28,368 bases of DNA from a virus (taxonomy: Duplodnaviria; Caudoviricetes): positions 1 through 28,368 of IMG/VR virus record IMGVR_UViG_3300015050_000788. The stretch is one strand, 5' to 3'. The translations under genes were made by a program, and so were the position numbers. This document shows, in pieces, positions 7,056 through 26,374 of the stretch; within the stretch, counting starts at the first letter, position 1; each line of letters begins with the position of its first letter. Below the pieces are notes generated by a model that was given only the letters and a program-made list of their open reading frames with translations, searched no databases and was not told where the DNA came from.

Positions 7056-7083
7056 GTTTTAGTGTGAGTTGAGGTTAACTACC

Positions 7084-7162: not shown

Positions 7163-7215
7163 CTCGTAGCACAGCGAGGCGTTGCCTGCTGGATATGGTC
7201 GTTAGCGAAGTTCGC

Positions 7216-12841: not shown

Positions 12842-13359
12842 GCGATAACGGGCGGCGCGGACAAGGTGGAAAGGGCCCCGGGGTTTTGGGCCGGGGTTTG
12901 GGAACGGGCCGGGGAGTTTTGGGCGGCGGGGCCGGGCCCGCTGGATGCTTCAATAATCTTTTCGGAAGCCTTACGCTTTTTCGCTTCAATGTCAACCATC
13001 GCTTGCTGAAGCATCATGATGTTGAAGCTAACGCCCGGCGGAGTTTTGGACTTTTCGTTCCGACCTTTTCCTTCTTCGATCAGGTAACGCAGCCCGCGCT
13101 CGCGAACGGACGGCGGGGTTTTCTCGGCGTTAAGGACTACTTCTTTGTAAGCTTGTACGAATATGTCCATCTCGTCCGCGCGGACGACTTCGTAGGCTTC
13201 AAGATTTCCGGCGGCCGCTTCTTTCAACCGATAGTTATGGTCTCCGCTCAACACGGTCTTAACTAGCGCAAGTTCTAACTCGTAGCCCTCAGCGATCTCT
13301 TCCGCAGACAACCCTTCGTTATAGGCTTGCTTGATTGAGCTGACGAGATTGGTTTGCAC
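12838..13359 (-). CDS. terS: Terminase small subunit (putative)
   Basis: Directly upstream of terL (ATGA overlap); N-terminal HTH-like GLSAEEIAEGYELELALVKTVL. Start moved to GTG 13359 because the track start (TTG 13389) lies inside a -24/-12 promoter motif. Confidence 0.6.
   Translation of the reverse strand: MQTNLVSSIKQAYNEGLSAEEIAEGYELELALVKTVLSGDHNYRLKEAAAGNLEAYEVVRADEMDIFVQAYKEVVLNAEKTPPSVRERGLRYLIEEGKGRNEKSKTPPGVSFNIMMLQQAMVDIEAKKRKASEKIIEASSGPGPAAQNSPARSQTPAQNPGALSTLSAPPVIA
12873..12936 (+). repeat. G-tract array (ten runs of 3-4 G), G-quadruplex-type motif
   Basis: GGGCCCCGGGGTTTTGGGCCGGGGTTTGGGAACGGGCCGGGGAGTTTTGGGCGGCGGGGCCGGG. Confidence 0.75.
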
Positions 13360-13372: not shown

Positions 13373-13388
13373 AGCTTATGTCGTGCCA
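13373..13388 (-). promoter_or_regulatory. sigma54-type promoter of the virion operon
   Basis: Minus strand TGGCACGACATAAGCT, GG-N10-GC spacing; predicted +1 near 13362. Confidence 0.7.
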
Positions 13389-13426
13389 ACCGTCGGCGTT
13401 AAGGTTTGTGCCAAGTCGGCGTTAAG
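13383..13426. repeat. Tandem duplication GTGCCAA(CC)GTCGGCGTTAAG
   Basis: GTCGGCGTTAAG at 13392 and 13415, each preceded by GTGCCAA; degenerate third copy at 13430. Confidence 0.8.
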
Positions 13427-13735
13427 ATTGTTGGCGTGAATTGTAACTGAGTACAAAATTGTGAAAAAATTTTCTGGGGACTGTTGTTAGTCCCCGTTTC
13501 CGTTTCTGGGGAGGTCAGTCGAGAACCCTCCGTTTACGAGTGCGAATGTACGAATGTGAACTTGTTTACATGTGAGAAGGTGTTCTCAGAAGTAAGCGTT
13601 CACGGCGGAAAGGTGTTAGCTGTTGGACGCGGAGAAGTCTAGTATGTCTATCGGGATTGTCGATTAAGGTTCGCCGGGCGAAGTCGAATAGTGGCAAGAC
13701 CTTAATGCCTAAGAGTTTCCGGAAATTGTTCGGAC

Positions 13736-14016
13736 TATAAATAAAATATGTAATGGCTTCTAACTATCAAAATATAGTATATATATATATATATATAAGA
13801 TATATATAAAAAGTTACAGTTTTAGACCCTAAAACACCTCATTTTGGCTCTTTTTGGGTATAATTGAGGGTAAAACGAGGCTGAATAAGAGGGTTTTCTT
13901 GTTTAGAGTGTAACTAGTTACAGCCTGAAGGAGCGAAAAGAGGAAAAGTATATATGGATGGTCTTTAAAAACGTGCTTTTGCTTTATATACTGTAATAGA
14001 TTTAGTTACACTCCTA
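13736..14016. other. AT-rich intergenic tract with (TA)10 and AGTTACA boxes; candidate origin or genome-end region
   Basis: (TA)10 at 13778-13797; palindrome TGTAACTAGTTACA at 13909-13922; sits between the divergent arms. Confidence 0.45.
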
Positions 14017-14043
14017 GCCCAAACGGTGCGTGGAGACGCTAGA

Positions 14044-14112
14044 TGTCGGAAAAGCTTACAGTCTGTCGGAAAACTTTACGGCAAATTGCAAGAAAGCGTC
14101 GGTTTACTTTAC
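14044..14112 (+). repeat. Three direct repeats, candidate upstream activating sequence
   Basis: TGTCGGAAAAGCTTAC (14044), TGTCGGAAAACTTTAC (14064), CGTCGGTTTACTTTAC (14097). Confidence 0.7.
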
Positions 14113-14135
14113 ATGCGTTTTGCACGGGCGTTGAT

Positions 14136-14148
14136 CATCAAGGAGTTA
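14136..14148 (+). promoter_or_regulatory. IHF-like binding site
   Basis: CATCAAGGAGTTA versus consensus WATCARNNNNTTR (one mismatch), immediately upstream of a -24 box. Confidence 0.5.
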
Positions 14149-14153
14149 CAGCT

Positions 14154-14169
14154 TGGCATTGACGGTGCT
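14154..14169 (+). promoter_or_regulatory. sigma54-type promoter P1
   Basis: TGGCATTGACGGTGCT, GG-N10-GC; predicted +1 near 14180. Confidence 0.7.
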
Positions 14170-14179
14170 AGTTCTCAAT

Positions 14180-14508
14180 CGTTCATTACAAGCCGAGAAA
14201 GCTCGGACATGAGCCGCGCCAATCGCGGAAGGTTGCTAGCATGGCAGATGACTAGTGACGTATGGGATTTAAGCTTGACCCGCCCCGAAAGGGCGCACGA
14301 AGAACGGTAGGGTAATCGGAACCTGAACCTTGGGACCGGATCGTTGCAGAAGGTCAGCAAACATACGGCTACACTCCCGCAACGGTCTGAGCATACAGAA
14401 CGAGCCGAAAGGCTGGATAACGGTAGCCCGTTAGAACACAAGACGGAGGACAGAAGGCGTCTAATTAGCGCCCGGCAGAATTCACTGCCGGAACTATAGG
14501 AAACCTAT
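14180..14508 (+). ncRNA. Candidate large structured RNA or leader (about 330 nt)
   Basis: Near-continuous helices, two with GAAA-containing loops (CGCCC-CGAAA-GGGCG, AGCC-GAAA-GGCT), and a nested multibranch domain at 14212-14370. Confidence 0.65.
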
Positions 14509-14929
14509 GTATTCAATCGTCACTCCTGAAGTCTGTATTGCTGCGCTCGCCACACTCGCCCCAGAAGGCTGGTCTTTTGAAGACGTGCAACGGAAGACGC
14601 ACAACGTCATCCGCGACAGTCTCCGCGAAATTCAGTTCGCACAAAAGGCACGCAAGGACGGAGCGAAGCTTGTTCGGTTGAAAGTCAACCGCACCAAGTT
14701 CACCGCGAGCTACAGCACGGCGATGCAAGGCGACATCAAAAACGTCAAAGTGAAGATGTTAGACTTGCATGACTGGCTTTGGGATATTCATGAACTGACG
14801 GAGACTTGGGGTGAAGACTCCATCGAATCCGTCACTGTTCCCGATAGGTTGGCAGACTTCGCGAAGGCTATGTTTGTAGCCAAGGAAGCCAAAAACAAGG
14901 CTCCCGATGCGGAGACTGTCAACGCCTAA
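14507..14929 (+). CDS. Hypothetical early protein
   Basis: 140-aa ORF, ATG preceded by AGGA. Confidence 0.75.
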   Translation: MYSIVTPEVCIAALATLAPEGWSFEDVQRKTHNVIRDSLREIQFAQKARKDGAKLVRLKVNRTKFTASYSTAMQGDIKNVKVKMLDLHDWLWDIHELTETWGEDSIESVTVPDRLADFAKAMFVAKEAKNKAPDAETVNA

Positions 14930-14937
14930 GTAATCGC

Positions 14938-15239
14938 GCACTAGCGAGTTAAGTCTCGTTAGATGCCTTATGTCCTCAGTTACGTGTTCTCCGCGCCAAT
15001 CAAAGCGCGGTCTGCCATATAGTTAATCACAAATTGCAATCTCTTTGATTAGAGCCTTAGCAACGCTCTGAGATGTTATTTGTGTAGGGCTTAGGACGCT
15101 CTGTTAGCAAACCGATGGAACGCGATGAAGGGTGTATTACCCATTAGCGAAGTCTACCGGATAACAGTAACAGAACCGTATCCCTCTTTTGCGCAGTCGG
15201 CTAAGGACAGACGTGTTCTGTCTTTTTTGACTGCGTAAA
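14938..15239 (+). ncRNA. Candidate structured RNA (about 300 nt)
   Basis: Helices CTAGCGAG/CTCGTTAG, GTCCT/AGGAC, CCGCGC/GCGCGG, CACAAAT/ATTTGTG, ATCTC/GAGAT, AGAGC/GCTCT, TCTGTTA/TAACAGA and a long closing hairpin at 15188-15239; no ORF in the track. Confidence 0.6.
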
Positions 15240-15342
15240 CAAGCTAGTGGAAACGATACCGTTCGAAGTGTAATAGCCGCCGCGCGCAGCGCGGTGGAGA
15301 CTAAGCTCCTCAATTCGTTACCATAAGTGAAAGGTAATTACT

Positions 15343-15573
15343 ATGTCCAAAACCTACGGTAAATACGCATTCTATGCGACGCCCACCGCGCAAACAGTCA
15401 CCGCGCAGACGGCCCATGCCGCGAGGGCGCACGTAAACATTGTCCGTCCATTGAGCAAAAGGACCGCGAAGCACGACAAGCTAGCAGTACGAGCGGCGCG
15501 AGACGGAATTAAACCATTTAAGGCTCCTGATTACGCCGCGCGGAATGCTGGATTGGTTGGGACGATACATTAA
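15343..15573 (+). CDS. Small basic hypothetical protein
   Basis: 76-aa ORF with AAAGGT upstream. Confidence 0.6.
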   Translation: MSKTYGKYAFYATPTAQTVTAQTAHAARAHVNIVRPLSKRTAKHDKLAVRAARDGIKPFKAPDYAARNAGLVGTIH

Positions 15574-15579
15574 GGTCTT

Positions 15580-15654
15580 ATGAAGAACGTAGTTGAGTGT
15601 ATTGGTGTTATCGTTACCTTTGGAATGGCCTTGTTCTTGTTGTTCTTTGTTTGA
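15580..15654 (+). CDS. 24-aa hydrophobic peptide
   Basis: MKNVVECIGVIVTFGMALFLLFFV fills the gap between the previous stop and promoter P2. Confidence 0.4.
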   Translation: MKNVVECIGVIVTFGMALFLLFFV

Positions 15655-15669
15655 GGCACAAAGGTTGCT
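15654..15669 (+). promoter_or_regulatory. sigma54-type promoter P2
   Basis: AGGCACAAAGGTTGCT. Confidence 0.75.
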
Positions 15670-15743
15670 ACTGGCTTGTTGGCTAACGGGATCATGGACA
15701 AGGCCGCGGATGCGGCCTGGCTAGTGATGCCCCGCGCCATTCT

Positions 15744-16046
15744 ATGAACGCACAACAAGCTATTCAACACATCCAATCAAAACTCATGTCAAACGATCCA
15801 TTAGCTAGTTTGACCTGTCGCCACTGGGCAATTGTCTTTTATTGTCACAAAGATAAGCTAATCAAAACGTATGACGCCTCCGACCCGTTGCGCGGTGTTA
15901 AAGCCTTGCAAAAGGCACATCCGGATTTGGAGTATTTGGAACTATTGCCTTGTTCTAACTCCGCCGCCGCAAACGAATATGTTAAAGCTTGTACACTTTA
16001 TGGGAAGATTTACAACGCGTGCATTGATAAGCTAGAAACTAAATGA
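15744..16046 (+). CDS. Hypothetical protein, probable paralogue of 17623-17937
   Basis: Gapless alignment by eye sharing FY...D.....YD.........A.....P. Confidence 0.7.
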   Translation: MNAQQAIQHIQSKLMSNDPLASLTCRHWAIVFYCHKDKLIKTYDASDPLRGVKALQKAHPDLEYLELLPCSNSAAANEYVKACTLYGKIYNACIDKLETK

Positions 16047-16102
16047 CGCGTGCCAGCCGGGCGGCATCCGCCGCCCAAACCAATTAGCCATGTAGCCACG
16101 TA

Positions 16103-16126
16103 GCCACTCTCCGGAGTGGCCTTTTT
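16103..16126 (+). terminator. Intrinsic terminator-like hairpin
   Basis: GCCACTC-TCCG-GAGTGGC followed by CTTTTT. Confidence 0.6.
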
Positions 16127-16546
16127 ATGCAAACCTTCCTCCCGTTCGCGAACTTTACCAACTCCGCGCGAGTCCTAGATACCCAGCGACTCGGTAAACA
16201 GCGCGTCGAAAACTTACAGATACTATCCGCCCTAATCTTCCCGTCCTACGGCTGGCAAGCACATCCGGCGGTCAACATCTGGCGCGGACACGGACAGGCA
16301 CTACTCGATTACCACGAAGCCATCTGTGCCGAATGGACTCGGCGCGGTTACAAGGACACTTGTTTAACCAAGTTCAAAGCTCTTCTCGCCGGACGGACAT
16401 TCCTTTCCGACAAACTTCCGTCCATTATCGGCCATGAACCATTTCACGCGTCGCACCGCGCGGCCTTACTACACAAAAACTTCAAACATTACTCCACCTT
16501 TGGTTGGACTGAAATCCCTCAACTTAACTACGTTTGGAAATTATGA
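16127..16546 (+). CDS. Pyrimidine-dimer DNA glycosylase-like protein (MSMEG_6728 / Pyr_excise family)
   Basis: MQTFLP...SARVLD..RLGKQRVE..QIL...W..HPAV..WRGH...H.SHRA.LL.K...Y signature. Confidence 0.85.
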   Translation: MQTFLPFANFTNSARVLDTQRLGKQRVENLQILSALIFPSYGWQAHPAVNIWRGHGQALLDYHEAICAEWTRRGYKDTCLTKFKALLAGRTFLSDKLPSIIGHEPFHASHRAALLHKNFKHYSTFGWTEIPQLNYVWKL

Positions 16547-16737
16547 ACATCCTCAACCAACAAAACACGCCCGGGATTGTGGCGTTGATACCGCTCGGAC
16601 GAAACCTCATTAAGCTCGCCACTCAGTGCCGCTTAGTTCTATGCAAAGGTGCCGGGCGCGTTGACTACTGGCCCGTGTACGAAAAGGTAACCGTCTTGAC
16701 TCGTGAAGAAGTCGGACAAGAACTTGGTGGTAACTAG
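16543..16737 (+). CDS. Hypothetical protein
   Basis: ATGA-coupled start at 16543. Confidence 0.55.
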   Translation: MNILNQQNTPGIVALIPLGRNLIKLATQCRLVLCKGAGRVDYWPVYEKVTVLTREEVGQELGGN

Positions 16738-16751
16738 GCACAGAGCCTGCT
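16736..16751 (+). promoter_or_regulatory. sigma54-type promoter P3 (upstream of the RNA cluster)
   Basis: AGGCACAGAGCCTGCT. Confidence 0.75.
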
Positions 16752-16782
16752 AATCAAACCTCGCCGCGCGGGTTAATGCGCA

Positions 16783-16890
16783 GATGTTCAATAGAGACGG
16801 TGAGAACTAGCGAGACGCGAGCCTAGATCAAGGTGGTCGCGATATACCTCGAAAAGGATCCTTACTAGCTCACCGTTTCTATTGAGCATC
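16783..16890 (+). ncRNA. Long rod-like hairpin RNA
   Basis: 22-bp stem 16783-16804 / 16869-16890 (two G-U pairs) plus inner CTAG/CTAG, CGAG/CTCG and GCGA/TCGC. Confidence 0.65.
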
Positions 16891-17042
16891 GTGGCTGAGA
16901 GGTTTAAGGCAAAGGTCGCTCCTGTCCGCTAAAATAGTTCTCGGTAAAGTGGTGACATTCCGATGTTGGTTGGAATCGAGCTGGTTTATACGAGTAACGA
17001 ACCCAATCGGACCGCAGGTTCAAATCCTGCCGATGCTCTTCA
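16884..17042 (+). tRNA. tRNA-like RNA with a 103-nt insert in place of the anticodon and variable arms; no assignable anticodon
   Basis: Acceptor GAGCATCG/CGATGCTC, D-arm TGGCTGAGAGGTTTAAGGC, T-arm GCAGG-TTCAAAT-CCTGC. Confidence 0.7.
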
Positions 17043-17055
17043 ACTCCCGGGAACA

Positions 17056-17170
17056 TTTGAAAGAGTGCGTGATATAACTCCCGGACATCGAGTGTGCTGA
17101 TGTACCTATAAGTATCCCGTCCAGATCCCAATGACGTTAAAGTAGGGCGGGTGATTCCAGCACTTTCAAA
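17056..17170 (+). ncRNA. Three-way structured RNA element
   Basis: Closing helix TTTGAAA(GA)GTGC / GCACTTTCAAA; inner ACATCG/TGATGT and CCCGTCC/GGGCGGG. Confidence 0.5.
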
Positions 17171-17177
17171 AATTGGA

Positions 17178-17348
17178 GGCCTTTCGGTGTAGGTTAACCG
17201 TTCAACTTTTGACCACAAGGTCACGGAAAAAAGGCCGGTTCGATTCCGGCTCGGTGGCTGAGTTCTGGTGAGAAGGGAGTCAGGTTCAAATCCTGATGAT
17301 TGTCTTCGCGCTTGACAACGCGGAGTAACTCTGGTGAGACAAAAGCCA
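17178..17348 (+). ncRNA. Two further T-loop-containing tRNA-like elements
   Basis: GCCGG-TTCGATT-CCGGC (17234-17250) and TCAGG-TTCAAAT-CCTGA (17280-17296), without complete cloverleaves. Confidence 0.55.
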
Positions 17349-17389
17349 ACTAGCTAACATACCTAGGTCAATGTATGTCAAACTTTCCG

Positions 17390-17489
17390 ACCCACCAACA
17401 CGGCTAAGAATACCGAGAGTTAGACAGGCACATCTGGGAGCCGTTTAGCGTGCAAAATCTCGGTACCTTGTGTTGGTGGGTTTCTCTTT
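17390..17489 (+). ncRNA. Long bulged hairpin ending the RNA cluster, with U-rich tail
   Basis: ACCCACCAACAC/GTGTTGGTGGGT, TACCGAGA/TCTCGGTA, GTTAGAC(A)GGC/GCCGTTTAGC, then TTCTCTTT. Confidence 0.6.
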
Positions 17490-17539
17490 GTAGATAAGGC
17501 CGGGCGCGGCAGCGCCAACGGCAGGGAGGCAGTCCACCG

Positions 17540-17555
17540 TGGCATAGAGCCTGCT
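17540..17555 (+). promoter_or_regulatory. sigma54-type promoter P4
   Basis: TGGCATAGAGCCTGCT; 14 of 16 positions identical to P3. Confidence 0.75.
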
Positions 17556-17622
17556 TGTTCTTGTTGTTCGCTCTGGAATGTTTCCACGGCAAACACTTTA
17601 ACAAGCAGGTTTTGTTTTTGTT

Positions 17623-17937
17623 ATGAAGACTATTCACTTCCGTGCAGACCAAATCATCGAACAAGCAACTAAAGACAACGCAAAGCGTATGATCGGAAAT
17701 CGTTATTTTGTCTTGTTCTACTACGACACCGATTTAAGACTTCACGTGTACGACACGCGCGAAATCGCTAAATGCAACGACGCTGTGATTGCCAAGAATC
17801 CCAGCTACGTTTTGATTGCTGTTGAAAGCTTTCCTGACGAGCGCAGTTGCCGTGATTGCTGTGCGTCTGTGCGACTTACTGAGCGCATTCATGAATCCTT
17901 CCAAAAGCTTGCAAAAGAGCAACTGGGTTTAAGTTAA
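17623..17937 (+). CDS. Hypothetical protein, probable paralogue of 15744-16046
   Basis: Gapless alignment by eye; first gene after P4. Confidence 0.7.
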   Translation: MKTIHFRADQIIEQATKDNAKRMIGNRYFVLFYYDTDLRLHVYDTREIAKCNDAVIAKNPSYVLIAVESFPDERSCRDCCASVRLTERIHESFQKLAKEQLGLS

Positions 17938-17977
17938 GCTCCGCGGGGCCGCTGCCGCGGCCAGCCCAACAACCCAG

Positions 17978-17993
17978 CGGCCTTGGACTTGCT
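17978..17993 (+). promoter_or_regulatory. sigma54-type promoter P5 (weaker -24 box)
   Basis: CGGCCTTGGACTTGCT; predicted +1 coincides with the ATG at 18004. Confidence 0.5.
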
Positions 17994-18003
17994 CTAACAT
18001 CTC

Positions 18004-18156
18004 ATGTTACGCAAGTTACTACTTCCAATCCTCGCCGCCCTACTTGTCCCCATTACGTTAACCGCTGCCGGTTTACTAATGGGGATTTTTCTTGCCTCCA
18101 CGCTAACTGGCCTGATTGGTTGGCTAAAACTACTCAATCGCATCCTGGACCTATGA
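18004..18156 (+). CDS. 50-aa membrane protein
   Basis: MLRKLLLPILAALLVPITLTAAGLLMGIFLASTLTGLIGWLKLLNRILDL; stop overlaps the next ATG (ATGA). Confidence 0.65.
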   Translation: MLRKLLLPILAALLVPITLTAAGLLMGIFLASTLTGLIGWLKLLNRILDL

Positions 18157-18317
18157 CCAAAGTTGACCTCAAAATCTTAACGGACTCCGCCGAGATTCGC
18201 GCCGCGCTGACTAAGCTCTCCGAGCGACAACTTCAGAAATACAATAGTCACCGAGATTCGATGTTAGCGGCGCGTCCCGACGGCACCGTTATTGTCTATC
18301 GACCCACACAGAAATGA
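18153..18317 (+). CDS. Hypothetical protein
   Basis: ATGA-coupled on both sides; start MTKVDLK. Confidence 0.6.
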   Translation: MTKVDLKILTDSAEIRAALTKLSERQLQKYNSHRDSMLAARPDGTVIVYRPTQK

Positions 18318-18538
18318 ACAAACCGCCATCCGTCGCCGTGATAATGTTTCAAACCCCGCGCCGCTTCTATCGTCTCGACGTTGACCGCGTGACATTCAAT
18401 AACCTCCTTGCTAAAGGCGCCGAACTAACCGCGCTTGTCATTGGAACCGAACTTTATCGCCGCAAGACACTTACGTCTAAACAACGCTTCGTGTCTGCGG
18501 GGATTGTTGGACAATTAATTGACACCTTCGAACTATGA
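18314..18538 (+). CDS. Hypothetical protein
   Basis: Part of the ATGA-coupled chain. Confidence 0.65.
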   Translation: MNKPPSVAVIMFQTPRRFYRLDVDRVTFNNLLAKGAELTALVIGTELYRRKTLTSKQRFVSAGIVGQLIDTFEL

Positions 18539-18789
18539 GTGACACACCAAGAACGGATGCGGCCCGATGGGACGATAACGATCCGTACGAAGCAATGGCC
18601 CACGAGTGCAGTAAAATGGAGCGCGAACTCACCGCAGCCCGCGCCGAGATTGAGCGGCTGCGCGGGGAGATTGAGCAAGCCTATTTGGAGGGTTGCATCG
18701 ACGGGCACAACGCGGCCCATCCAGAAAGCAATGGTAAGGACAAGTGGGAATATTCCCGCGCCAAGCGCATCTCGGAGGGTAAGGAATGA
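18535..18789 (+). CDS. Phage protein with MSDTPRTDA start and short coiled coil
   Basis: MSDTPRTDA...ERELTAARAEIERLR is a recurrent small-phage-protein pattern. Confidence 0.7.
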   Translation: MSDTPRTDAARWDDNDPYEAMAHECSKMERELTAARAEIERLRGEIEQAYLEGCIDGHNAAHPESNGKDKWEYSRAKRISEGKE

Positions 18790-18935
18790 CAACCCAACAA
18801 CTCTACGCAACCATTATTCTCACACTGTTGGCTCTGACAATCGGCGCAGTTGAAGCGATCTATGGTCTATGGTCCGCACTGGCTGTCTGTGTGATGATTG
18901 CGGGCGGTGGACTTTTTCTCATTAGAAAGTTATGA
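18786..18935 (+). CDS. 49-aa two-helix membrane protein
   Basis: MTTQQLYATIILTLLALTIGAVEAIYGLWSALAVCVMIAGGGLFLIRKL; ATGA overlaps at both ends. Confidence 0.65.
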   Translation: MTTQQLYATIILTLLALTIGAVEAIYGLWSALAVCVMIAGGGLFLIRKL

Positions 18936-19342
18936 AACTCAAGTATGATACAAGCACCTTAAACGGCAAAATTGCTGTTATGCAAGAATATGAACGTACA
19001 GGAAAACGTCCTATGTGCAGAGGAGGACTCGATAAGAACTTCCGCCCGTTAAGTACATCACCCTTCTGGCAATGGAATGATCTTGACTACAACTATCCCG
19101 TCGAACCTACGCTCAAGCCGTGGACGTTTGAAACGACGCCCAAATCTTATATGTTGCTCAAACGTAAAGCGCAAGAACCACTGATTGTTGTTGTTGCAGT
19201 CGCTTGGACAAAATCTGCCATACGCACATTACATCCTAATTTCGACGCCGCGACGTATACGTTTGATTATCTGCTCGAACATTTTGAACACTCTCTCGAC
19301 GCTGGCAAAACCTGGCAACCTTGTGGAACTTATGAATCCTAA
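18932..19342 (+). CDS. Hypothetical phage protein
   Basis: 136 aa; PFWQWNDLDY and DAGKTWQPCG motifs. Confidence 0.7.
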   Translation: MKLKYDTSTLNGKIAVMQEYERTGKRPMCRGGLDKNFRPLSTSPFWQWNDLDYNYPVEPTLKPWTFETTPKSYMLLKRKAQEPLIVVVAVAWTKSAIRTLHPNFDAATYTFDYLLEHFEHSLDAGKTWQPCGTYES

Positions 19343-19544
19343 AGATCTCAAACGACTAGAACGATTCACCGCCGCGGCTCTGTCGGGCTTGTGCGCGAAT
19401 CATGAGACGCTCAAAATAGCATTGTCCATAGACAGAGACTCCAATGTTACTGAAGGCAGTACAATCGGAGCCTTGTCTGTACAGATGGCAACACTCACAC
19501 TCAAGTCATTAGACCAATATGCCTCAAATCAATCCACCACCTAA
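19332..19544 (+). CDS. Hypothetical phage protein
   Basis: Likely start MNPKDLKR; ERFTAAALSGLCAN resembles the common phage 'FA..A.QGL.A' motif. Confidence 0.65.
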   Translation: MNPKDLKRLERFTAAALSGLCANHETLKIALSIDRDSNVTEGSTIGALSVQMATLTLKSLDQYASNQSTT

Positions 19545-19776
19545 AATTAATCCCTACGGCGGTTTCGGCGACGAGGTCGGCCCGACGCGCGGAACGTTGT
19601 CACCAAACCCTGACGCCGTAATCAACAATCTCTCAGCGCAACTAGATAACGCTCTCGCGCTAGTCGTTAAGAAGCAGAAGTCTCTTGACGAACTACGCGC
19701 CGCGCTGCGAGAACGATTGAACAAAGAACCTCTTACTTTCCTTAAGATTGATCTACTCAACATCATTGATCTATGA
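19519..19776 (+). CDS. Hypothetical protein
   Basis: 85 aa with a coiled-coil C-terminal half. Confidence 0.6.
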   Translation: MPQINPPPKINPYGGFGDEVGPTRGTLSPNPDAVINNLSAQLDNALALVVKKQKSLDELRAALRERLNKEPLTFLKIDLLNIIDL

Positions 19777-19979
19777 AAGACAACTCCTACAAAATCTCTC
19801 GTTCATACGCGCGCGGCTGCGCGGTCACAAGTCTAGACGCACTTCCTAAACATGACGGTTGTGCTAAACCATTTGACATGCGTGCCTGGGAACGGCGCCG
19901 AGCGGAACAGGGACGACCACTTACTACTGTTTCTAACCACAAACCTCGTGGCAAACAAAAGATAGGAGCTTTAATGTGA
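19773..19979 (+). CDS. Hypothetical protein
   Basis: Coupled overlaps on both sides. Confidence 0.55.
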   Translation: MKDNSYKISRSYARGCAVTSLDALPKHDGCAKPFDMRAWERRRAEQGRPLTTVSNHKPRGKQKIGALM

Positions 19980-20230
19980 AACCCCTAACCTTCCACGAAC
20001 TTCGCGTCCGGCTTGGGCGGCGCGAGTTGACACCCGAAGAACATAACATCGAGACTATTCTCGACACAGCAACAAAGCGCATCTGGCGCCTATCACCGCA
20101 AGAAAAACGAGTAATGCGAGCGGTGAACGACTGGCCCCGCGAATCCCAGCGCAACATCGCTTGGAGTCTCGGACTCAAACTCAAAACCTTCAAAGCGCAT
20201 TTGCTTAATGCGAGGAAGAAATTAAAATGA
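19976..20230 (+). CDS. Stand-alone LuxR / sigma70 region 4-type HTH protein
   Basis: LSPQEKRV...SQRNIAWSLGLKLKTFKAHLLNARKKL. Confidence 0.75.
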   Translation: MKPLTFHELRVRLGRRELTPEEHNIETILDTATKRIWRLSPQEKRVMRAVNDWPRESQRNIAWSLGLKLKTFKAHLLNARKKLK

Positions 20231-20448
20231 AACCAATCTTCATTTCAACCCATCTCCTCGCCGTCGGGCTCGGACTTGGACTCGGCGCGGTGTTAAGTAA
20301 CACCGACTCCAAACGCATATTTGCCGCGGGCGCAATAGCTGGTATTAACATTTCAGTAATTGATAATGGTCTTCGCCGGCAAGGCGTAACACTGTCACAA
20401 GATGAGATCAAGAAACTAATCAATAACGAATGGCTTAAGTTTAAATGA
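20227..20448 (+). CDS. Small hydrophobic protein
   Basis: Two hydrophobic Gly-rich segments; ATGA-coupled. Confidence 0.6.
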   Translation: MKPIFISTHLLAVGLGLGLGAVLSNTDSKRIFAAGAIAGINISVIDNGLRRQGVTLSQDEIKKLINNEWLKFK

Positions 20449-20699
20449 ACTCCCCGCGTTGTCCCCGCTGTCTCAAGTCAATGCCCGCCGAACGTAAGTC
20501 CGCCGGGTTCGCAATGTGTGTCTCATGTTCTCCACAAATCGCGCTCAAAGGCGCCAACATCTACGGCCATAAGACCGCCGGTGCGGTCGAGATTATGCAT
20601 CCTGACACGTATCGTAACTATAAACGGGTTAGCTCGCGGAAGGCTAAGGGTACGCATGGGCCGAGTTTTCAGCGCGGTACAACCGCTGTCTACCGATGA
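20445..20699 (+). CDS. C4 zinc-finger protein, DksA/TraR-finger-like
   Basis: CPRC...MPAER......CVSC. Confidence 0.6.
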   Translation: MNSPRCPRCLKSMPAERKSAGFAMCVSCSPQIALKGANIYGHKTAGAVEIMHPDTYRNYKRVSSRKAKGTHGPSFQRGTTAVYR

Positions 20700-21625
20700 T
20701 CTCTATAATAATTCCAACTCGTAACCGCCCCGCGCTCTTGCGGCGCGCGATGGAATCCGTCCTCAGTCAAAGTCACGGAAACTTTGAACTAATCGTCGTG
20801 GATAACTCAGACGGCTATGATCCGCGAATCGCTGATCTTGATCGTATCGAAGACGACCCCGGCAGAATTCGTTATCTTCCGCCCGGCGACCGTTTACCGA
20901 TGTGGGATAACTGGCGTCGCGGCTTTAACGCTGCGCGCGGCGACTGGATTATGTTCCTTCCTGATAAGTGCATTCTCGTGCCGGGCGCCTTACACGCGCT
21001 TATCTCTCAACAGCTTTCTCCCGAGTGGATTTATACGTGGGAGATCAGTTACGGCGTAAAGCCCCGCGCCGCGCGGACTGAACGTAACTATCAAGAGTTC
21101 AGCGTAGAACAAACCTTCTCTCATACACGCACACACGCCGAACTTTCTAACGTCTTTCCGCACGGCATGAACGCGCTCTATCCGCTCGGACTACTACACG
21201 ACTGGTTCTTCCAATCTTCATGCCCTGACTACTACGCAGGCTGTTGTGCTCTCTATAAGTCAAAGGGCGTCCGACATCTACCACAACCGCTAACTTATGT
21301 CCCGCGCAATAATCCATTGCTTGCTTCGACAGGCGCAATGGTCGCGCTCAGTCATCCCGGCGCGACCGAATATCTAAAAGACGTTCATCTTCCGGGCGGC
21401 GAGCTAGTTGATCCAACGTATTGCTGGGGTTACGTCGAGAAGATCCTTTATCTTCCGTTTAATTTCGCGGCGTATCTGCGCCATACGCTTAATCGCGCCC
21501 GCGCAGGCTGTTCGACGGACAAGCAAGTCAAATTCATCTTAGCTAACTGGAAAGACTTTCTTGCCGCCGCGCCGAGCACGTTCATTTCAATCCTATCCCA
21601 ACTCGTCAAGCGTGCGCGGGAATAA
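20696..21625 (+). CDS. Glycosyltransferase family 2
   Basis: ISIIIPTRNR..LLRRAMESVLSQ...NFELIVVDNS...GFNAARGDWIMFL. Confidence 0.9.
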   Translation: MISIIIPTRNRPALLRRAMESVLSQSHGNFELIVVDNSDGYDPRIADLDRIEDDPGRIRYLPPGDRLPMWDNWRRGFNAARGDWIMFLPDKCILVPGALHALISQQLSPEWIYTWEISYGVKPRAARTERNYQEFSVEQTFSHTRTHAELSNVFPHGMNALYPLGLLHDWFFQSSCPDYYAGCCALYKSKGVRHLPQPLTYVPRNNPLLASTGAMVALSHPGATEYLKDVHLPGGELVDPTYCWGYVEKILYLPFNFAAYLRHTLNRARAGCSTDKQVKFILANWKDFLAAAPSTFISILSQLVKRARE

Positions 21626-21629
21626 TCCT

Positions 21630-21645
21630 TGGCACGCCACAAGCT
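21630..21645 (+). promoter_or_regulatory. sigma54-type promoter P6 (AAGCT class)
   Basis: TGGCACGCCACAAGCT; 14 of 16 positions identical to the virion-operon promoter. Confidence 0.7.
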
Positions 21646-21717
21646 TAGTCCTAATTCCTAATTTCTAACGCCTCCGCTGCACAGCGTTAAATGTGTGGCA
21701 AAACAAAGTAACATAAC

Positions 21718-22344
21718 ATGTCTGATAATACCCCTGTAGAAGTTCCCACCGAAAACGTGACCATTGGCGGAACGGTCTTTCCGTTCACCGAGATCACTGA
21801 ACCCGGACGTAAGTCCAAGAAGAATCCCACGCCGGCGCCGACGATCTACGTCCGTCCGGTTCTCAACGGCCTGGACGAACACGTTGAGTTCGTGAAGTCC
21901 ATGCTTGTCTCCGCCGGGGACAAAGCCGTCGATCTGTTCGACAAGTTGTTCGTCCCGCACTTCAAGACCGTGTCTGATAATGGTCTGTACAACAAGGACG
22001 GCTCCGTCAGTCTTGAGAAGTTGCCCTCGTTGCTGGTCGCCCTCCGCCACAGCAAGTCCGGACCGTCGCTCGAAGACCTCGAACGCCTCAAGGACGAACT
22101 CAACGCCGAGTGTTTGGAGATTCTCGCGCTGGTGTCGTTGCAGCGCCGCGACTCGGCCGCGTACGTCGCCGAGCTCGAAAAACAGGGTCTCACCGAAGAC
22201 CAGTACGTTGTCAAGTGTTTGTCCGTTCAGCAACGGCTCCAAGATGTGCAGCGCGCTCATCTCGAAGCGCAGCAGGCTAAGGCCGCTCGCGCCGCGAACC
22301 GTGCCGCGAAGCAGGCTAAGGATGCTGGCAACGCGGCGGTGTAA
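21718..22344 (+). CDS. Hypothetical protein in its own transcription unit
   Basis: 208 aa with a helical Ala/Lys-rich tail; flanked by P6 and a terminator. Confidence 0.8.
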   Translation: MSDNTPVEVPTENVTIGGTVFPFTEITEPGRKSKKNPTPAPTIYVRPVLNGLDEHVEFVKSMLVSAGDKAVDLFDKLFVPHFKTVSDNGLYNKDGSVSLEKLPSLLVALRHSKSGPSLEDLERLKDELNAECLEILALVSLQRRDSAAYVAELEKQGLTEDQYVVKCLSVQQRLQDVQRAHLEAQQAKAARAANRAAKQAKDAGNAAV

Positions 22345-22364
22345 GTAACGTTCCACCCAAACAG

Positions 22365-22404
22365 GACTCCCAGGATGTAAAAGTCCTGGGAGTTTTTTCT
22401 TTTT
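22365..22404 (+). terminator. Intrinsic terminator
   Basis: GACTCCCAGGA / TCCTGGGAGTT followed by TTTTCTTTTT. Confidence 0.85.
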
Positions 22405-22405
22405 A

Positions 22406-22421
22406 TGGCATACCGTTTGCT
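22406..22421 (+). promoter_or_regulatory. sigma54-type promoter P7 (helicase / activator operon)
   Basis: TGGCATACCGTTTGCT, directly after a terminator. Confidence 0.8.
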
Positions 22422-22441
22422 GACCCAGTTACACTCCTATC

Positions 22442-22651
22442 ATGAAAACCTTTGTATGCACTCAGTTCACAGGGCACTATCCTGTCGGTGTTGCTGCTGT
22501 TGTCATTGCTCCAGATAGAGTAACAGCGACGCTCATTCTTAATGAACAGCTGAAACAACGATTTCTTCCGGGCGATGCTGCTATTGTAAACATGATTGAA
22601 ATACCCACAGACTTACCGTCTTGTGTTATTCTAGCAGACGGAAACTATTAA
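22442..22651 (+). CDS. Hypothetical phage protein
   Basis: FTGHYPVGVAAVVIA...ILADGNY; first ORF after P7. Confidence 0.7.
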   Translation: MKTFVCTQFTGHYPVGVAAVVIAPDRVTATLILNEQLKQRFLPGDAAIVNMIEIPTDLPSCVILADGNY

Positions 22652-22652
22652 C

Positions 22653-23315
22653 ATGCCCATCTCCCTCTCCTTAAACCAAATCATCGCCCTGCTCGACGGC
22701 GACGACGAACTCTCCGCCGAGCGCGGCTGGCTGATTCGTAACACGTTCGCCGCCGCGGAATGCACAGTAATTCGCGCCGAACTCGCGGCAAAGATACGCG
22801 CTGAAGATCCCGCCGGGCAGATCATCCACATTCAGTCTTACGTCATGGCCGAGTCCGGCGTGACAGTACATACCGCGTGGACTCCAATTACGTGGCACGA
22901 ATCATCCGAACGGCGCCGCTTACACCAGTTGAACAACTCAACCTGGCGTAAAGAACAGAACGAAAAACACCAGTGCTACGCCGCGGCGGAAGAACTTGGC
23001 CGGCGCATCACCGCCGCATTTGGAATCCCCGCGAAGACATACGTCAGTATGTTTATCGTACAAGCAGAAAAATTCAAATTTAATCCCGAAGAATTCAAAG
23101 CCTATCTCGAAGAAGCAGACAAGAAATTCAATATCTCGCAAGCATATGAACTCATCACAAGAAAAACCGAAACAGAAGAAAGTCCCCGCGGATCTCAAGA
23201 AGTTCCTATCGAGTCAGAAGAAGGTAATACGTTCTCTCGACAGACAGATTCGCTTGGCAACATTGCAATCGGAGAAGATTACAGACAAGATTCAAACGCT
23301 AATGGAAATCAATGA
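22653..23315 (+). CDS. Hypothetical protein
   Basis: 220-aa ORF starting 1 nt after the previous stop. Confidence 0.65.
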   Translation: MPISLSLNQIIALLDGDDELSAERGWLIRNTFAAAECTVIRAELAAKIRAEDPAGQIIHIQSYVMAESGVTVHTAWTPITWHESSERRRLHQLNNSTWRKEQNEKHQCYAAAEELGRRITAAFGIPAKTYVSMFIVQAEKFKFNPEEFKAYLEEADKKFNISQAYELITRKTETEESPRGSQEVPIESEEGNTFSRQTDSLGNIAIGEDYRQDSNANGNQ

Positions 23316-23454
23316 CAAGATCTTGAAGTCCAAGCTTACGTCTATGACGTATCGCGAACGCGAACTCAAAGCCATCCAACTCGAAGCCGTTAAGCTTCGC
23401 GGCGACCTCGATCCGATTGAACTGGGTGAAGTTCTGTCCACGTACCTAAAATGA
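23146..23454 (+). CDS. Coiled-coil protein overlapping the upstream ORF
   Basis: MNSSQEKPK...; stop is ATGA-coupled to the helicase; start position uncertain. Confidence 0.55.
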   Translation: MNSSQEKPKQKKVPADLKKFLSSQKKVIRSLDRQIRLATLQSEKITDKIQTLMEINDKILKSKLTSMTYRERELKAIQLEAVKLRGDLDPIELGEVLSTYLK

Positions 23455-25529
23455 AAGTCGCCCCGCCGCGCTCAACCATTGAGCTACCGTCAGTCTTCAC
23501 CGGCGCAAAGCCTCCGGTCACATCAACCTCGAACGCCGCGCTCGTTAGTGCCGCCCGGGCGCGCGCTAAACAAGTCGTAGAATTCGCAAAGACCTCGCGC
23601 TTCTCTGGCTGGGAAGACATGCAGTTGAAGTTCAACGTCTATGTTCCACCGAACTTCACCGCTCAGCCATATAGCTATATGGCCGTGCTCGGCTGGGCCG
23701 CGTGGTATGAGAAGAACGCCGCGAAACAAGTCCTCGAACCAGACGAAGTAACGTCCAAAATTCACTATCCAAAAGACCTCGCCGAGGTCGTCTGCGGCGC
23801 ATATACACTCCGCCCGCGCCAACGTAAGGCGCGCTGGCAAATCCTCGACGAGCTAATCGTCCGCGGTCATCATGACGCAGTGCTGTGTCCGATGAATACC
23901 GGCTCGGGTAAGACCATCGTCGCGGCGAGTATCATTCAAGAGTTCCAAAGGAGTTCATACTTTAACTTGGGTAATAAGTTCAAACTCTGGAACATCATCT
24001 ACATCGTACCAAAAGCAGTCCAAATCAAAACTATTAGAGCGCTAATCAAAGCGGGCATCACCGGGATTGGCTCCGACGTACACGTCATACCATACACCGG
24101 TCTGCGGAGCAAAGAGTTCAAGAACCTGTTCTCCGAGCGACAAGTAACTAACCCGTACAACGGAGAACTTCAGACAGTCTATGACTTCAAGATGGGCGAG
24201 CCCGCGCTAGTCATTCTGGACGAGTGTCACCGCGCGTCTAATCCCGAGGCACTAACCTCGCGCTACATCAAAGCCTTTATCTCCCCGCGGACTAAGTTCT
24301 TGTTCATGTCCGCGACTCCGGCAATTGTGCCCGAGGACTTGCGTCTATTTGCCCTCGCGTCCGGTCATAAGTTCAACGGCGAACGCATTGACGATGTGAA
24401 CTGGGGCGCGTTCGTCTCAGTCCGCGCGAACGCTAATCGTTTCGCAGTCAATCACGCCGCAATCACGCGTGTCTTTGACACGTTTGGCACGGCCATCGTT
24501 GATCCGCCCGCAGACCCGCGCAAGGTCAAGTCATACAACGGCGTCAAGCTAATCAACTTCCGCAGCGAGCGTGACAAACGGATGTATGAGAACGCACAGC
24601 AAGCATGGCTTGAGAAGTGTGAAAAGTTCGGACAATCACCGTCCGAGCGTGGCCAGATCCTCGTTGCGTTCACTAACTTCCGGCGCGCCGCGGAACTAAT
24701 CGCCGTGGACCAAGTCGTCGAAGCATGTCTCGTTGAGCACGCCGCCGGACGCGCACCGATTATGGCCGTGTGTTACAAGCAGACAGTTCGCGCCGCCGTC
24801 GCGGAGTTCGCCAAGCGTGGCATTCCGCGCAGCAAGATCTCAATCATCTGGGGCGGCGACCCCGAAATTAAGGAATCCGATGTCATACCATTGCTCGACT
24901 GGGTAACGTTACGGTCGGAGGTTGAACAACCAGGTTATGTTTGGTCCGACAGAAAACTCCGCGCGAAGTATAACAAGTCCACGCGCTACCATCAGTCGCG
25001 CCTGACCAACGAGCGCACAGTCGATGAACAGCGCGAGCTTGACCGCTGGACTTCGACCATGAAACTCCACGATCAGACACCGGAGCAACGTCAAGACGAG
25101 ATCGACAACTTCCAAGAAGGCCGCACCGAATTTTGCATATTCACCTTGTCGGCGGGCGGAACGGGCATTGATCTCGACCAACAGATCGAGCGCGCCCGGC
25201 CGCGGACTATGTTCGCCATGCCGTGCTATTATGCCGAGGAATTTGTTCAAGCGTTCGGCCGCGCTTATCGCGAGTTCACACTCACGGACGTGTATCAGTG
25301 GGTCGTACTGTTTAACGGAACTATTGTCACCAATCATGTCGCGCCGCGGCTCGCGAAGAAGATTGCGTGCATTAACAAAACCACTAGGAGTGGATTGGAG
25401 TTAGAGAACGAACTGTTCGAAGCGGCCAAGCGCGGTAAGCTTGTGAACGAACCGATCGCCGCCGCGCCGGAAGTTGAAGTGTCGGAAGATACTGTTGTTG
25501 AAGATGATGAAGATGAAGACGAAGAGTAA
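23451..25529 (+). CDS. Superfamily 2 (DExH) helicase
   Basis: MNTGSGKT (motif I), VILDECH (II), MSATP (III), SAGGTGIDL (V), QAFGRAYR (VI); acidic tail. Confidence 0.9.
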   Translation: MKVAPPRSTIELPSVFTGAKPPVTSTSNAALVSAARARAKQVVEFAKTSRFSGWEDMQLKFNVYVPPNFTAQPYSYMAVLGWAAWYEKNAAKQVLEPDEVTSKIHYPKDLAEVVCGAYTLRPRQRKARWQILDELIVRGHHDAVLCPMNTGSGKTIVAASIIQEFQRSSYFNLGNKFKLWNIIYIVPKAVQIKTIRALIKAGITGIGSDVHVIPYTGLRSKEFKNLFSERQVTNPYNGELQTVYDFKMGEPALVILDECHRASNPEALTSRYIKAFISPRTKFLFMSATPAIVPEDLRLFALASGHKFNGERIDDVNWGAFVSVRANANRFAVNHAAITRVFDTFGTAIVDPPADPRKVKSYNGVKLINFRSERDKRMYENAQQAWLEKCEKFGQSPSERGQILVAFTNFRRAAELIAVDQVVEACLVEHAAGRAPIMAVCYKQTVRAAVAEFAKRGIPRSKISIIWGGDPEIKESDVIPLLDWVTLRSEVEQPGYVWSDRKLRAKYNKSTRYHQSRLTNERTVDEQRELDRWTSTMKLHDQTPEQRQDEIDNFQEGRTEFCIFTLSAGGTGIDLDQQIERARPRTMFAMPCYYAEEFVQAFGRAYREFTLTDVYQWVVLFNGTIVTNHVAPRLAKKIACINKTTRSGLELENELFEAAKRGKLVNEPIAAAPEVEVSEDTVVEDDEDEDEE

Positions 25530-25531
25530 TT

Positions 25532-26374
25532 ATGAAAATCGCCCCACCATCTCCCGCCGCAATTACCGCGGGCATAACTGAAATCTCTGCGCGCCGCGGC
25601 TTCGTTGTCGCAGCCACGGAGAAACAAACCTCCGCGCAGGAGTTCGTCACATACGACTCCGACATGCTAGCGGTCCTGCGCAATGCCGAACTTCTCGCCG
25701 AGTATAAGTTTCCCGTCCTTATCCTCGGAGAGTCAGGCACCGGTAAGGAACTCCTCGCGCGTGTCCTTCATGGCAACCGTAACACTATCGCAAGTATCTC
25801 GGCGCGGATGAAGCTCGACTTGTTCTACGCAATCAACTGCTCCGGCATACCAGAAACCCTATTCGAGAGTCTCCTTTTTGGTCACAAGTCCGGCTCGTTT
25901 ACCGGCGCCGAGGGAGACGAACTAGGGCTACTCCGCGCGGCACATAACGGCACCGCCTTTCTCGATGAGGTCGGTGACCTCCCGCCATCTCAACAAACCA
26001 AACTCCTCCGCGTGATCCAGACCGGACGAGTCCGCCCAGTCGGTGACACGACTGAGTATCCTATCAATTGTCGGTTCGTATTCGCTACGAACAAAGACCT
26101 TAAGGCCATGTCTCTTAAAGGTACGTTCCGAGAGGATCTCTACTATCGTATCTCCACCTTTGTTCTCCGCACCAAACCGTTGCGCGACCGAGAGTGCGAT
26201 GTTAAACCAATCGCCGCGCGGATTGCACAGCGGCATAAACTAACACCTTTGGACGACTCGATGTCCATTCCCCCGGCGGCGTATAACCGTGGCAATGTCC
26301 GCTCGTTAGAGAACTGGATGTTGCGGCGAGAACTACTTGGATTATCTGATGATGAAGCTTTAATTGATCTATGA
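25532..26374 (+). CDS. sigma54-dependent activator (bEBP) AAA+ domain-only protein
   Basis: PVLILGESGTGKELLAR, INC, ESLLFGHKSGSFTGA, GTAFLDEVG, QTKLLRVIQ, ATNKDL, FREDLYYRI, PLRDR, GNVRSLEN; no receiver domain and no C-terminal HTH. Confidence 0.95.
   Translation: MKIAPPSPAAITAGITEISARRGFVVAATEKQTSAQEFVTYDSDMLAVLRNAELLAEYKFPVLILGESGTGKELLARVLHGNRNTIASISARMKLDLFYAINCSGIPETLFESLLFGHKSGSFTGAEGDELGLLRAAHNGTAFLDEVGDLPPSQQTKLLRVIQTGRVRPVGDTTEYPINCRFVFATNKDLKAMSLKGTFREDLYYRISTFVLRTKPLRDRECDVKPIAARIAQRHKLTPLDDSMSIPPAAYNRGNVRSLENWMLRRELLGLSDDEALIDL

Follow-up and report, generated by a model that had tools for sequence, protein, structure and literature searches.

The sigma-54 holoenzyme binds the sequence TGGCAC-N5-TTGC and cannot open DNA without a bEBP. 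Known phage strategies for transcription include a polymerase of their own, sigma-70-like factors, sigma-70 activators and antitermination. Among cellular bEBPs of reduced architecture, FlgR retains its receiver domain. FlgR and CtcC are described as lacking the DNA-binding domain (PMC3162934), and FleT of Rhodobacter sphaeroides, which is without both regulatory and DNA-binding domains, has been termed the only known bEBP of that kind (PMC7175178). DctD250, an engineered AAA+-only fragment of DctD, was reported to be constitutive, promiscuous and enhancer-independent, activating many sigma-54 promoters (PMC3844500). On the phage side, start-site mapping in Pseudomonas phage YuA gave one sigma-54-like promoter (PMC10914365), and Htm (Gp204) of E. 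coli phage AV110, an AAA+ protein likened to bEBPs, was hypothesised to act on the sigma-54 polymerase (bioRxiv 10.64898/2026.10.06.757011).

Predicted promoters and genes in the window

The window, i.e., the whole stretch of 28,368 nucleotides that was analysed, represents about 55% of its genome and belongs to a phage family with genomes of 43-59 kb. The initial annotation had listed eight GG-N10-GC motifs, each at the start of a transcription unit, and the coordinates and spacing of all eight were correct; that these positions are the starts of transcription units is something we infer. A ninth site, at 7231-7247 on the minus strand, was absent from that list. This site falls within the 3'-terminal part of a small ORF and precedes the major capsid gene by 192 nt. 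The features are as follows.

5754..7055, minus strand: likely major capsid protein (size, position after portal and scaffold, conserved in 20/20 relatives)
7231..7247, minus strand: predicted sigma-54 promoter for the gene of the major capsid protein, scoring 17.4 bits; +1 expected at 7220
11051..12841, minus strand: terminase large subunit
12838..13359, minus strand: likely terminase small subunit, named by position; probable start GTG 13359
13373..13389, minus strand: predicted sigma-54 promoter for the terminase-portal-scaffold unit, scoring 18.6 bits; +1 expected at 13362
14153..14169, plus strand: predicted sigma-54 promoter, the first of the right arm; 11.0 bits, followed by a structured non-coding stretch of about 330 nt
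15653..15669, plus strand: predicted weak sigma-54 promoter before ORF 15744; 8.0 bits
16735..16751, plus strand: predicted sigma-54 promoter heading a structured non-coding region; 13.1 bits
17539..17555, plus strand: predicted sigma-54 promoter before ORF 17623; 12.6 bits, near-copy of the 16735 site
17977..17993, plus strand: doubtful site, GGCC variant; 2.2 bits, rank 52
21629..21645, plus strand: strongest predicted sigma-54 promoter, heading the replication block that includes the activator gene; 19.7 bits
22363..22396, plus strand: terminator-like hairpin with a T run, immediately before the 22405 site
22405..22421, plus strand: predicted sigma-54 promoter, the last one before helicase and activator; 13.0 bits
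23451..25529, plus strand: superfamily 2 helicase
25532..26374, plus strand: sigma-54 activator (bEBP) gene, by PF00158 profile, motifs and predicted fold

For the plus-strand sites at 14153, 15653, 16735, 17539, 21629 and 22405, the predicted +1 positions are 14180, 15680, 16762, 17566, 21656 and 22432, respectively. The site at 13388 overlaps the TTG start of the terminase-small-subunit ORF as mechanically called, and homologues favour the GTG at 13359. The likely major capsid protein had no Pfam or PHROG match, and Rfam and ARAGORN returned nothing credible for the window. A perfect 14-bp palindrome occupies 13909-13922; the +1 predicted for the first right-arm site is 271 nt further on.

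The bare GG-N10-GC pattern is uninformative, with 240 matches in the window. The window was scanned with the consensus TGGCAC-N5-TTGC, holding GG and GC fixed and allowing up to two mismatches. Under a hand-made gene model, this gave 14 matches, of which seven were intergenic in the sense orientation, none intergenic antisense, five coding sense and two coding antisense. With that gene model, match densities were 2.0 and 0.2 per kb, respectively, for intergenic-sense sequence and the rest (binomial p = 7.6e-6). We also scored the window with a matrix built from 54 sites in its relatives, from which the window itself was excluded. Six sites reached 12 bits at the true spacing, compared to 0, 0, 1 and 0 when the spacer was shifted. 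The comparison of -24/-12 motifs in intergenic and coding sequence that the initial annotation had suggested gave an intergenic-sense enrichment that was specific to the spacing.

Seven of the eight motifs stand as sigma-54 sites, being intergenic, in the sense orientation and enriched; the exception is the weak one at 17978 (2.2 bits). All window sites but this one share the TTGGCACG-N4-TTGC consensus with the fixed GG-N10-GC spacing. It has GGCC instead of GGCA, a variant that is unenriched in the relatives (four intergenic-sense occurrences against 0-4 at other spacers), and the +1 predicted for it coincides exactly with the ATG at 18004.

The activator and its sites across the phage family

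The protein encoded at 25532-26374 matched PF00158 with E = 1.5e-55 and 187.8 bits (cut-off 20.2), and Foldseek returned the AAA+ domains of FleQ, NtrC4 and FlrC as top matches, in agreement with the earlier assignment of a bEBP AAA+ protein to this gene. It has a Walker A motif (GESGTGKE), a loop 1 of sequence GSFTGA (residues 121-126), a Walker B motif (FLDEV), an arginine-finger segment (FREDLYYR) and a sensor II motif (GNVRSL). The AAA+ core is preceded by about 37 residues in which two helices are predicted confidently, and the chain ends 21 residues past sensor II. Receiver, PAS, GAF and HTH domains were searched for in the protein and none was found, leaving the AAA+ core only. Likewise, no HTH or sensor-domain match was obtained for the activators of 20 relatives (0/20), so that the hallmark of the canonical classes Ia and Ib, an N-terminal sensor combined with a C-terminal HTH, is absent from the window protein and from 20/20 relatives. 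Judged by its sequence, the gene product comprises an intact bEBP core of the AAA+ type and has the architecture of class Ic (FleT-like).

These traits extend through the family. The catalytic motifs are intact throughout, loop 1 reads GSFTGA or GAFTGA in 49/70 phage rows, and a C-terminal tail of less than 25 residues is found in 69/70 phage rows against 1/80 cellular rows. A serine at loop position 2 also occurs in LevR, a validated activator (PMC3162934). In a tree built without FleT, the phage activators occupy one side of a single branch (support 100), forming a clade apart from the cellular bEBPs.

The helicase gene (23451-25529) lies immediately 5' of the activator gene, and the first seven residues of the two proteins co-vary within genomes (8/5000 shuffles), a signal driven by 4/20 genomes. 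A shared N-terminal tag acting as a capsid-targeting signal was considered and is unsupported: the activator/scaffold pair gave 134/5000 shuffles, and capsid, portal and terminase were not significant.

The initial annotation had suggested looking for co-occurrence of motif and activator in related phages, and the two do occur together. The activator was present in 35/35 near-complete genomes retrieved through capsid or terminase. No complete family member without it was found, and the sole activator-less contig among 41 is 69% complete. By its distribution in these genomes, the activator is a core gene of the family. In a held-out test, 20/23 clusters had a site scoring 12 bits or more in the 400 nt upstream of the capsid gene, compared to 0/23 for each of the controls (antisense, four spacer shifts and coding sequence). 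The capsid-gene site of the window has a counterpart in 19/20 relatives. For the large terminase, 16/20 relatives have a site in the 3.5 kb upstream, and the other 4/20 have no 12-bit site there.

In 35 relatives with activator identity below 70%, TGGCAY-N6-TGC was counted 63 times on the strand that carries the activator, compared to 2-8 times for eight other spacers; 30 of its occurrences were intergenic and in the sense orientation, against 0-2 at other spacers. The columns outside the seed returned the sigma-54 consensus (n = 54: T at -27 in 39, T at -26 in 48, G at -20 in 33, T at -14 in 39 and T at -11 in 49). Two further counts, 176 against 24 to 42 and 19/20 for the helicase, are partly circular, because the training sites came from the same genomes. 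The out-of-family controls, an Akkermansia phage and YuA, had no activator and 0 sites at 12 bits. Two promoter classes, ending in AAGCT and TGCT, were considered as an early/late code and rejected, since both are present on both arms in the relatives.

No conserved position was found between -87 and -28 of 128 strong sites, and no palindrome or dyad shared upstream of the sites stood out, in a comparison with a weak control that could miss enhancers at variable distance. A single-protein scan with the terminase found nothing, and the capsid had no match among isolated phages. In INPHARED, 65 records matched the activator; among the 60 matches listed, all were below 45% identity, and many resemble, by appearance only, host DNA within phage records.

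Other promoter types and polymerases were also sought. Sigma-70-type sites were not enriched in a search with an E. coli matrix that may miss the host's promoter type (135 sites with the true spacing, 106-139 in the controls), and there was no enrichment suggesting a sigma-70-type start-up promoter. Bacteroidetes-type and extended -10 patterns showed no strand asymmetry. The RNA polymerase beta subunit and sigma-70 region 2 were found in 0/61 genomes, as was a T7-type polymerase, the latter in a search without a positive control. Full-length sigma-54 is encoded by 4/61 genomes, in one case directly behind a -24/-12 site. Its nearest relatives are from Verrucomicrobiota, and the host of the family is probably a member of this phylum. 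A prophage search with the capsid profile, run without a positive control, gave 0 hits in 401 genomes of the phylum of G072 and 0 in 401 of that of G073, and the activator profile, run against genomes in 1/64 parts, returned cellular bEBPs.

Proposed mechanism and alternative readings

From the sequence evidence, the reading that we favour, and consider likely, is that the AAA+-core activator opens at least eight consensus sites, serving early, replication, terminase and capsid genes, through the host sigma-54 RNA polymerase and independently of enhancers. The host holoenzyme would form closed complexes at the -24/-12 sites observed on both arms, as expected from established sigma-54 biology; some relatives carry a sigma-54 gene and could supply the factor themselves. 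Given its motifs and fold, a ring of the activator would then touch region I of sigma-54 by the GSFTGA loop and use ATP to open the DNA. With neither sensor nor HTH, it would work from solution and be on whenever it is made, like the engineered DctD250. Both the 21629 and the 22405 site precede the activator gene, an order that would lead to positive feedback. Timing might be set by the accumulation of activator, by how strong each promoter is and by the number of template copies, with a possible contribution from attenuation in the capsid leader. The first round would require a trigger, for example a host bEBP, an activator carried in the virion or an undetected promoter type.

The initial annotation had the phage driving both arms, including the virion operon, from host sigma-54 polymerase with its own activator. 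Most of this is upheld by the co-occurrence of sites and activator, the sites before capsid, terminase and replication genes, and the lack of a phage polymerase and of sigma-70-type enrichment in our searches; however, the sigma-54 need not be the host's in every member, as 4/61 genomes encode their own.

The sites could be true sigma-54 promoters and the activator still need a partner for targeting or timing, either a host bEBP that joins it in a mixed ring or a phage protein that binds the N-terminal helices as an adaptor or inhibitor. We regard this as unlikely, but the two helices ahead of the core and the seven-residue co-variation with the helicase are consistent with it. FleT reportedly works together with FleQ. 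DctD250 was about 10-fold below enhancer-bound NtrC at one promoter, suggesting that a partner may be needed (PMC3844500). However, the L024 group, with an activator of 235 aa, has practically no N-terminal extension, and the 128 strong sites share neither an upstream position nor, against the weak control, a palindrome. It is still less probable that host bEBPs fire the phage promoters and that the activator chiefly reprograms host sigma-54 genes or merely boosts output. Such an arrangement would explain how the first round begins. In YuA, -24/-12 promoters are annotated although the phage has no activator of its own, the palindrome at 13909-13922 precedes the first right-arm site, and a promiscuous activator would fire host promoters too (PMC3844500). 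Against it, the activator is retained in 35/35 near-complete genomes, no family-wide enhancer was seen, and scattered host activators would be unlikely to give capsid-level output.

A reading in which the activator acts on host bEBPs as a decoy or inhibitor, and in which the sites serve for repression or as sinks for sigma-54 and not as promoters, is in our view very improbable. The missing HTH would fit a dominant-negative subunit, and sigma-54 occupies its sites even without activation. However, the catalytic motifs are intact family-wide, no other promoter class was found, and some members carry an extra sigma-54, once directly behind such a site; the placement of the sites before genes and in the same orientation also counts against this reading. 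That the motifs are chance matches is scarcely credible: GG-N10-GC alone occurs 240 times and the 17978 site may well be chance, but the enrichment is specific to spacing, strand and position, in window and relatives alike, and the held-out capsid test (20/23 against 0/23) contradicts it.

Beyond the favoured reading, it is possible, though we lean against it, that this is a widespread family of Verrucomicrobiota phages and runs nearly its whole programme on sigma-54, as a self-amplifying loop without a sigma-70 phase. Ignition by a virion-borne activator or by the sigma-54 state of the host would gate infection on physiology, and at least two lineages would have captured sigma-54 independently, giving a complete switch that needs only the host core polymerase.

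Comparison with known systems

We found a gene programme run through sigma-54 with the phage's own activator described for no phage in the literature. The initial annotation knew of no characterised phage with such a design, which our search bears out for the own-activator strategy but not for -24/-12 promoters in the virion region, for which YuA is a precedent. If true, an ATP-driven sigma-54 switch would be an additional phage strategy, across a whole uncultured family. It would offer a direct handle on Verrucomicrobiota phages and on sigma-54 within Verrucomicrobiota, in an activator/promoter system amenable to study without the phage itself, and cognate phage sigma-54/activator pairs would be candidate orthogonal expression tools.

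Like the window, YuA has promoters in the virion region, three of them annotated "-24/-12 consensus". It differs in that we found neither a bEBP nor a sigma-54 gene in it, the family matrix gives these three regions 4.6, -6.1 and -5.8 bits, and sigma-70-type and phage-specific promoters are in use as well. Htm differs in being described as without a GAFTGA loop, with an altered Walker B and a NusG-like domain, and was studied for its effects on host genes (bioRxiv 10.64898/2026.10.06.757011). The likeness to bacterial bEBPs (NtrC, NifA, PspF, FleQ; PF00158) lies in the AAA+ core, loop 1, Walker motifs, arginine-finger segment and fold, and in the -24/-12 consensus; the phage protein differs in having neither sensor nor HTH and no conserved enhancer that we could find, in being phage-encoded and in forming a separate clade. 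FleT, FlgR and CtcC (class Ic) are cellular regulators, unlike the phage activator, and FleT, being outside the tree, is likened by architecture. The family adds dozens of natural AAA+-only bEBPs to an architecture credited to FleT alone in a 2020 review (PMC7175178). DctD250 has this AAA+-only architecture as well (PMC3844500), but it is a laboratory construct, whereas the phage activator would be its natural and conserved counterpart, with a putative activity.

Predicted sigma-54 promoters in the window

The window, an entire viral contig of 28,368 bases that is ~55% complete, has two arms diverging at a gap at ~13,400–14,500, with virion genes leftward and early and replication genes rightward. 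The capsid, portal, scaffold and small terminase genes were named from position, size and conservation, and had no Pfam or PHROG match. The early arm includes:

16127–16546, pyrimidine-dimer glycosylase
19976–20230, LuxR-type HTH protein (weak match)
20696–21625, family 2 glycosyltransferase

The divergent gap contains a TA-repeat tract (13761–13816), present in ~10 of 21 genomes and possibly an origin or genome end. A perfect 14-bp palindrome lies at 13909–13922, and its half-site recurs in intergenic DNA. Shine-Dalgarno-like words precede only 28 of 150 starts of the family core genes. G001, the closest complete relative, has a gene for an Acb2/Tad1-like hairpin domain (L083:199–522) between the scaffold and capsid genes; the equivalent position in the window holds an unassigned 86-aa ORF (7216–7476).

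The eight GG-N10-GC motifs reported in the initial annotation are all present, among 240 matches to this bare pattern in the window. The sigma-54 consensus, applied with a hand-made gene model and ≤2 mismatches, gave 14 matches, of which seven were intergenic and sense and none intergenic and antisense (p = 7.6e-6). The suggested −24/−12 matrix scan was done with a matrix trained on 54 intergenic sites from relatives, leaving out the window; the top seven sites were 21629, 13389(−), 7247(−), 16735, 22405, 17539 and 14153. These include six of the eight proposed sites, and 15653 ranked eleventh, but 17977 was only fifty-second. The latter is doubtful: it carries a GGCC variant that is not enriched in 20 relatives, yet its predicted +1 falls on the ATG at 18004. 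The additional site, 7247(−), lies upstream of the capsid gene. Site 13389(−) overlaps a mechanically called TTG start; homologues point to a GTG start at 13359 instead, four bases inside the predicted transcript.

Structured sequences were found behind some of the sites. The capsid leader (7050–7222, −) has a strong fold (z −5.3): an attenuator-like arrangement in which a U run comes after a long hairpin. The outer stem of this hairpin is common to the window and G001, while many other relatives have a repeated GCTTCT...stem-loop motif instead. The non-coding region behind 16735 (16760–17310, +) is also structured (z −4.68 for 16760–17050), with a 22-bp inverted repeat and, by eye, tRNA-like arms in two near-copies at 17015 and 17281; ARAGORN and Rfam gave no match. 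A second structured non-coding stretch (14180–14500, +; z −3.35) follows 14153.

The putative activator and predicted promoters across the family

The bEBP AAA+ gene claimed at 25532–26374 (+) was borne out by a PF00158 match (E = 1.5e-55), and all remaining domain matches were to AAA-type families. An alignment of 35 homologues shows conserved Walker A and Walker B motifs, loop 1 (GSFTGA), sensor II and the arginine-finger segment. The structure model (pLDDT 92.5) resembles the AAA+ domains of FleQ, NtrC4 and FlrC (TM 0.70) and predicts two N-terminal helices beyond the matched fold. None of the best 34 homologues (258–335 aa, a near-copy aside) has an HTH or receiver annotation, and no sensor or HTH match was found in the activators of 20 relatives at E 0.1. 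In IMG/VR, 268 stretches encode activator relatives; the 80 retained are all short and, with the window set aside, fall into 35 clusters at 70%. Of the 70 phage rows, 69 have a tail of <25 residues beyond the AAA+ domain, as does 1 of 80 cellular rows. A tree of 178 rows was built with FastTree, with one truncated cellular row left out. A branch with support of 100 sets the 70 phage rows apart in it, together with three rank-labelled "cellular" rows, which are 205–235 aa near-relatives of one phage clade. By the features that can be checked from sequence the protein is a bEBP, but not one of the canonical three-domain classes.

The helicase, the activator and the next protein (23451, 25532 and 26371) share an MK(V/I)APP start, possibly a docking or degradation tag; similar within-genome N-terminal matches occur in G002, G003 and G006 (8 of 5000 shuffles).

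The same terminase is present in 29 of 30 activator-bearing contigs (25 of 25 near-complete ones), and gene order is common to the 20 relatives compared over their full sequence. In the opposite direction, contigs were found by capsid or terminase profiles (42 long contigs chosen, 41 used). Of the 41, 40 had the activator, among them all 35 of the 35 that are near-complete; the profiles, derived from activator-bearing phages, bias this set towards the family.

TGGCAY-N6-TGC occurred 63 times on the activator strand versus 2–8 times with other spacers (35 clusters), and matrix columns outside the seed restored the rest of the sigma-54 consensus. Sites of ≥12 bits numbered 176 with the true spacing versus 24, 26, 41 and 42 with shifted spacings (21 sequences), a partly circular comparison; the independent tests are those on the virion strand. 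There, 19 of 20 genomes have a site ≤400 nt upstream of the capsid gene, and none has one on the opposite strand; 2 of 20 have a site upstream of the portal, and 16 of 20 have one within 3.5 kb upstream of the terminase. Across 76 of 79 capsid loci (three partial loci were left out), 20 of 23 clusters had an upstream site, versus 0 of 23 in each of six controls. Neither activator nor 12-bit site was present in phage YuA or in an Akkermansia phage whose terminase is related. The combination of sigma-54 sites and phage activator is a real, family-wide feature. An extra site lies ≤1.2 kb 3' of the activator gene in 16 of 20 relatives (partly training sites) and is absent from the window.

Phage sigma-54 and the likely host

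Sigma-70-type sites were not enriched (135 versus 121, 139 and 106, using E. coli weights, which may miss the host's promoter type). Among 61 genomes, none encoded a beta subunit or sigma-70 region 2, nor a T7-type polymerase in a search without positive control. Four encode sigma-54 (G006, G021, G031 and G033); three of these probably belong to a single close cluster. The two examined are full length:

G006, C1:2730–4196 (L096), phage sigma-54
G021, C1:13905–15194 (L132), phage sigma-54, directly behind a sigma-54 site

Both have the activator-interacting, core-binding and DNA-binding domains. Since the two types are only about 33–37% identical, they probably represent two captures. No sigma-54 gene was found in the ~55% complete window or in G001.

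For both proteins the best matches are in Verrucomicrobiota: in searches of 34 genomes, 10 of them from this phylum, it supplied the top four each time (290–334 versus 227.5 bits for the best outsider; 200–217 versus 173). Three of five taxon-named homologues are also from this phylum. Among annotated phages, an Akkermansia phage gave the best match to the terminase. By these similarities the host is likely to belong to Verrucomicrobiota. The capsid profile found no prophage in 401 + 401 genomes of two phyla (no positive control).

Proposed mechanism and comparison with known systems

It is established that −24/−12 sites are bound by sigma-54 holoenzyme and need a bEBP for opening (PMC7175178). 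The AAA+-only fragment DctD250 opens many promoters from solution, though an activator bound to an enhancer is stronger (PMC3844500). The phage protein is likewise AAA+-only, and the predicted family promoters showed no conserved upstream element, although enhancers at variable distance could be missed; constitutive, enhancer-independent activation is therefore likely. The activator would act from solution on holoenzyme at the phage sites. Since its gene lies downstream of 21629 and 22405, and a site lies ≤5 kb upstream of the helicase in 19 of 20 relatives (a partly circular count), it would also raise its own expression by positive feedback. G011 had no helicase match and no site in that range upstream of its activator.

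The literature searched, which covered few subscription titles and included PMC4611503 and PMC7824862, turned up no phage that carries both a bEBP gene and promoters to match, nor one that encodes a sigma-54. YuA has three promoters annotated as −24/−12 in its virion region, with one sigma-54-like start mapped (PMC10914365). Htm of phage AV110 differs in having no GAFTGA loop (bioRxiv 10.64898/2026.10.06.757011). The natural parallel named for the phage activator is FleT of Rhodobacter sphaeroides (PMC7175178). The sigma-54 and bEBP parts are known, but their arrangement was not found described in the literature searched, and it is probably a new phage transcription strategy.
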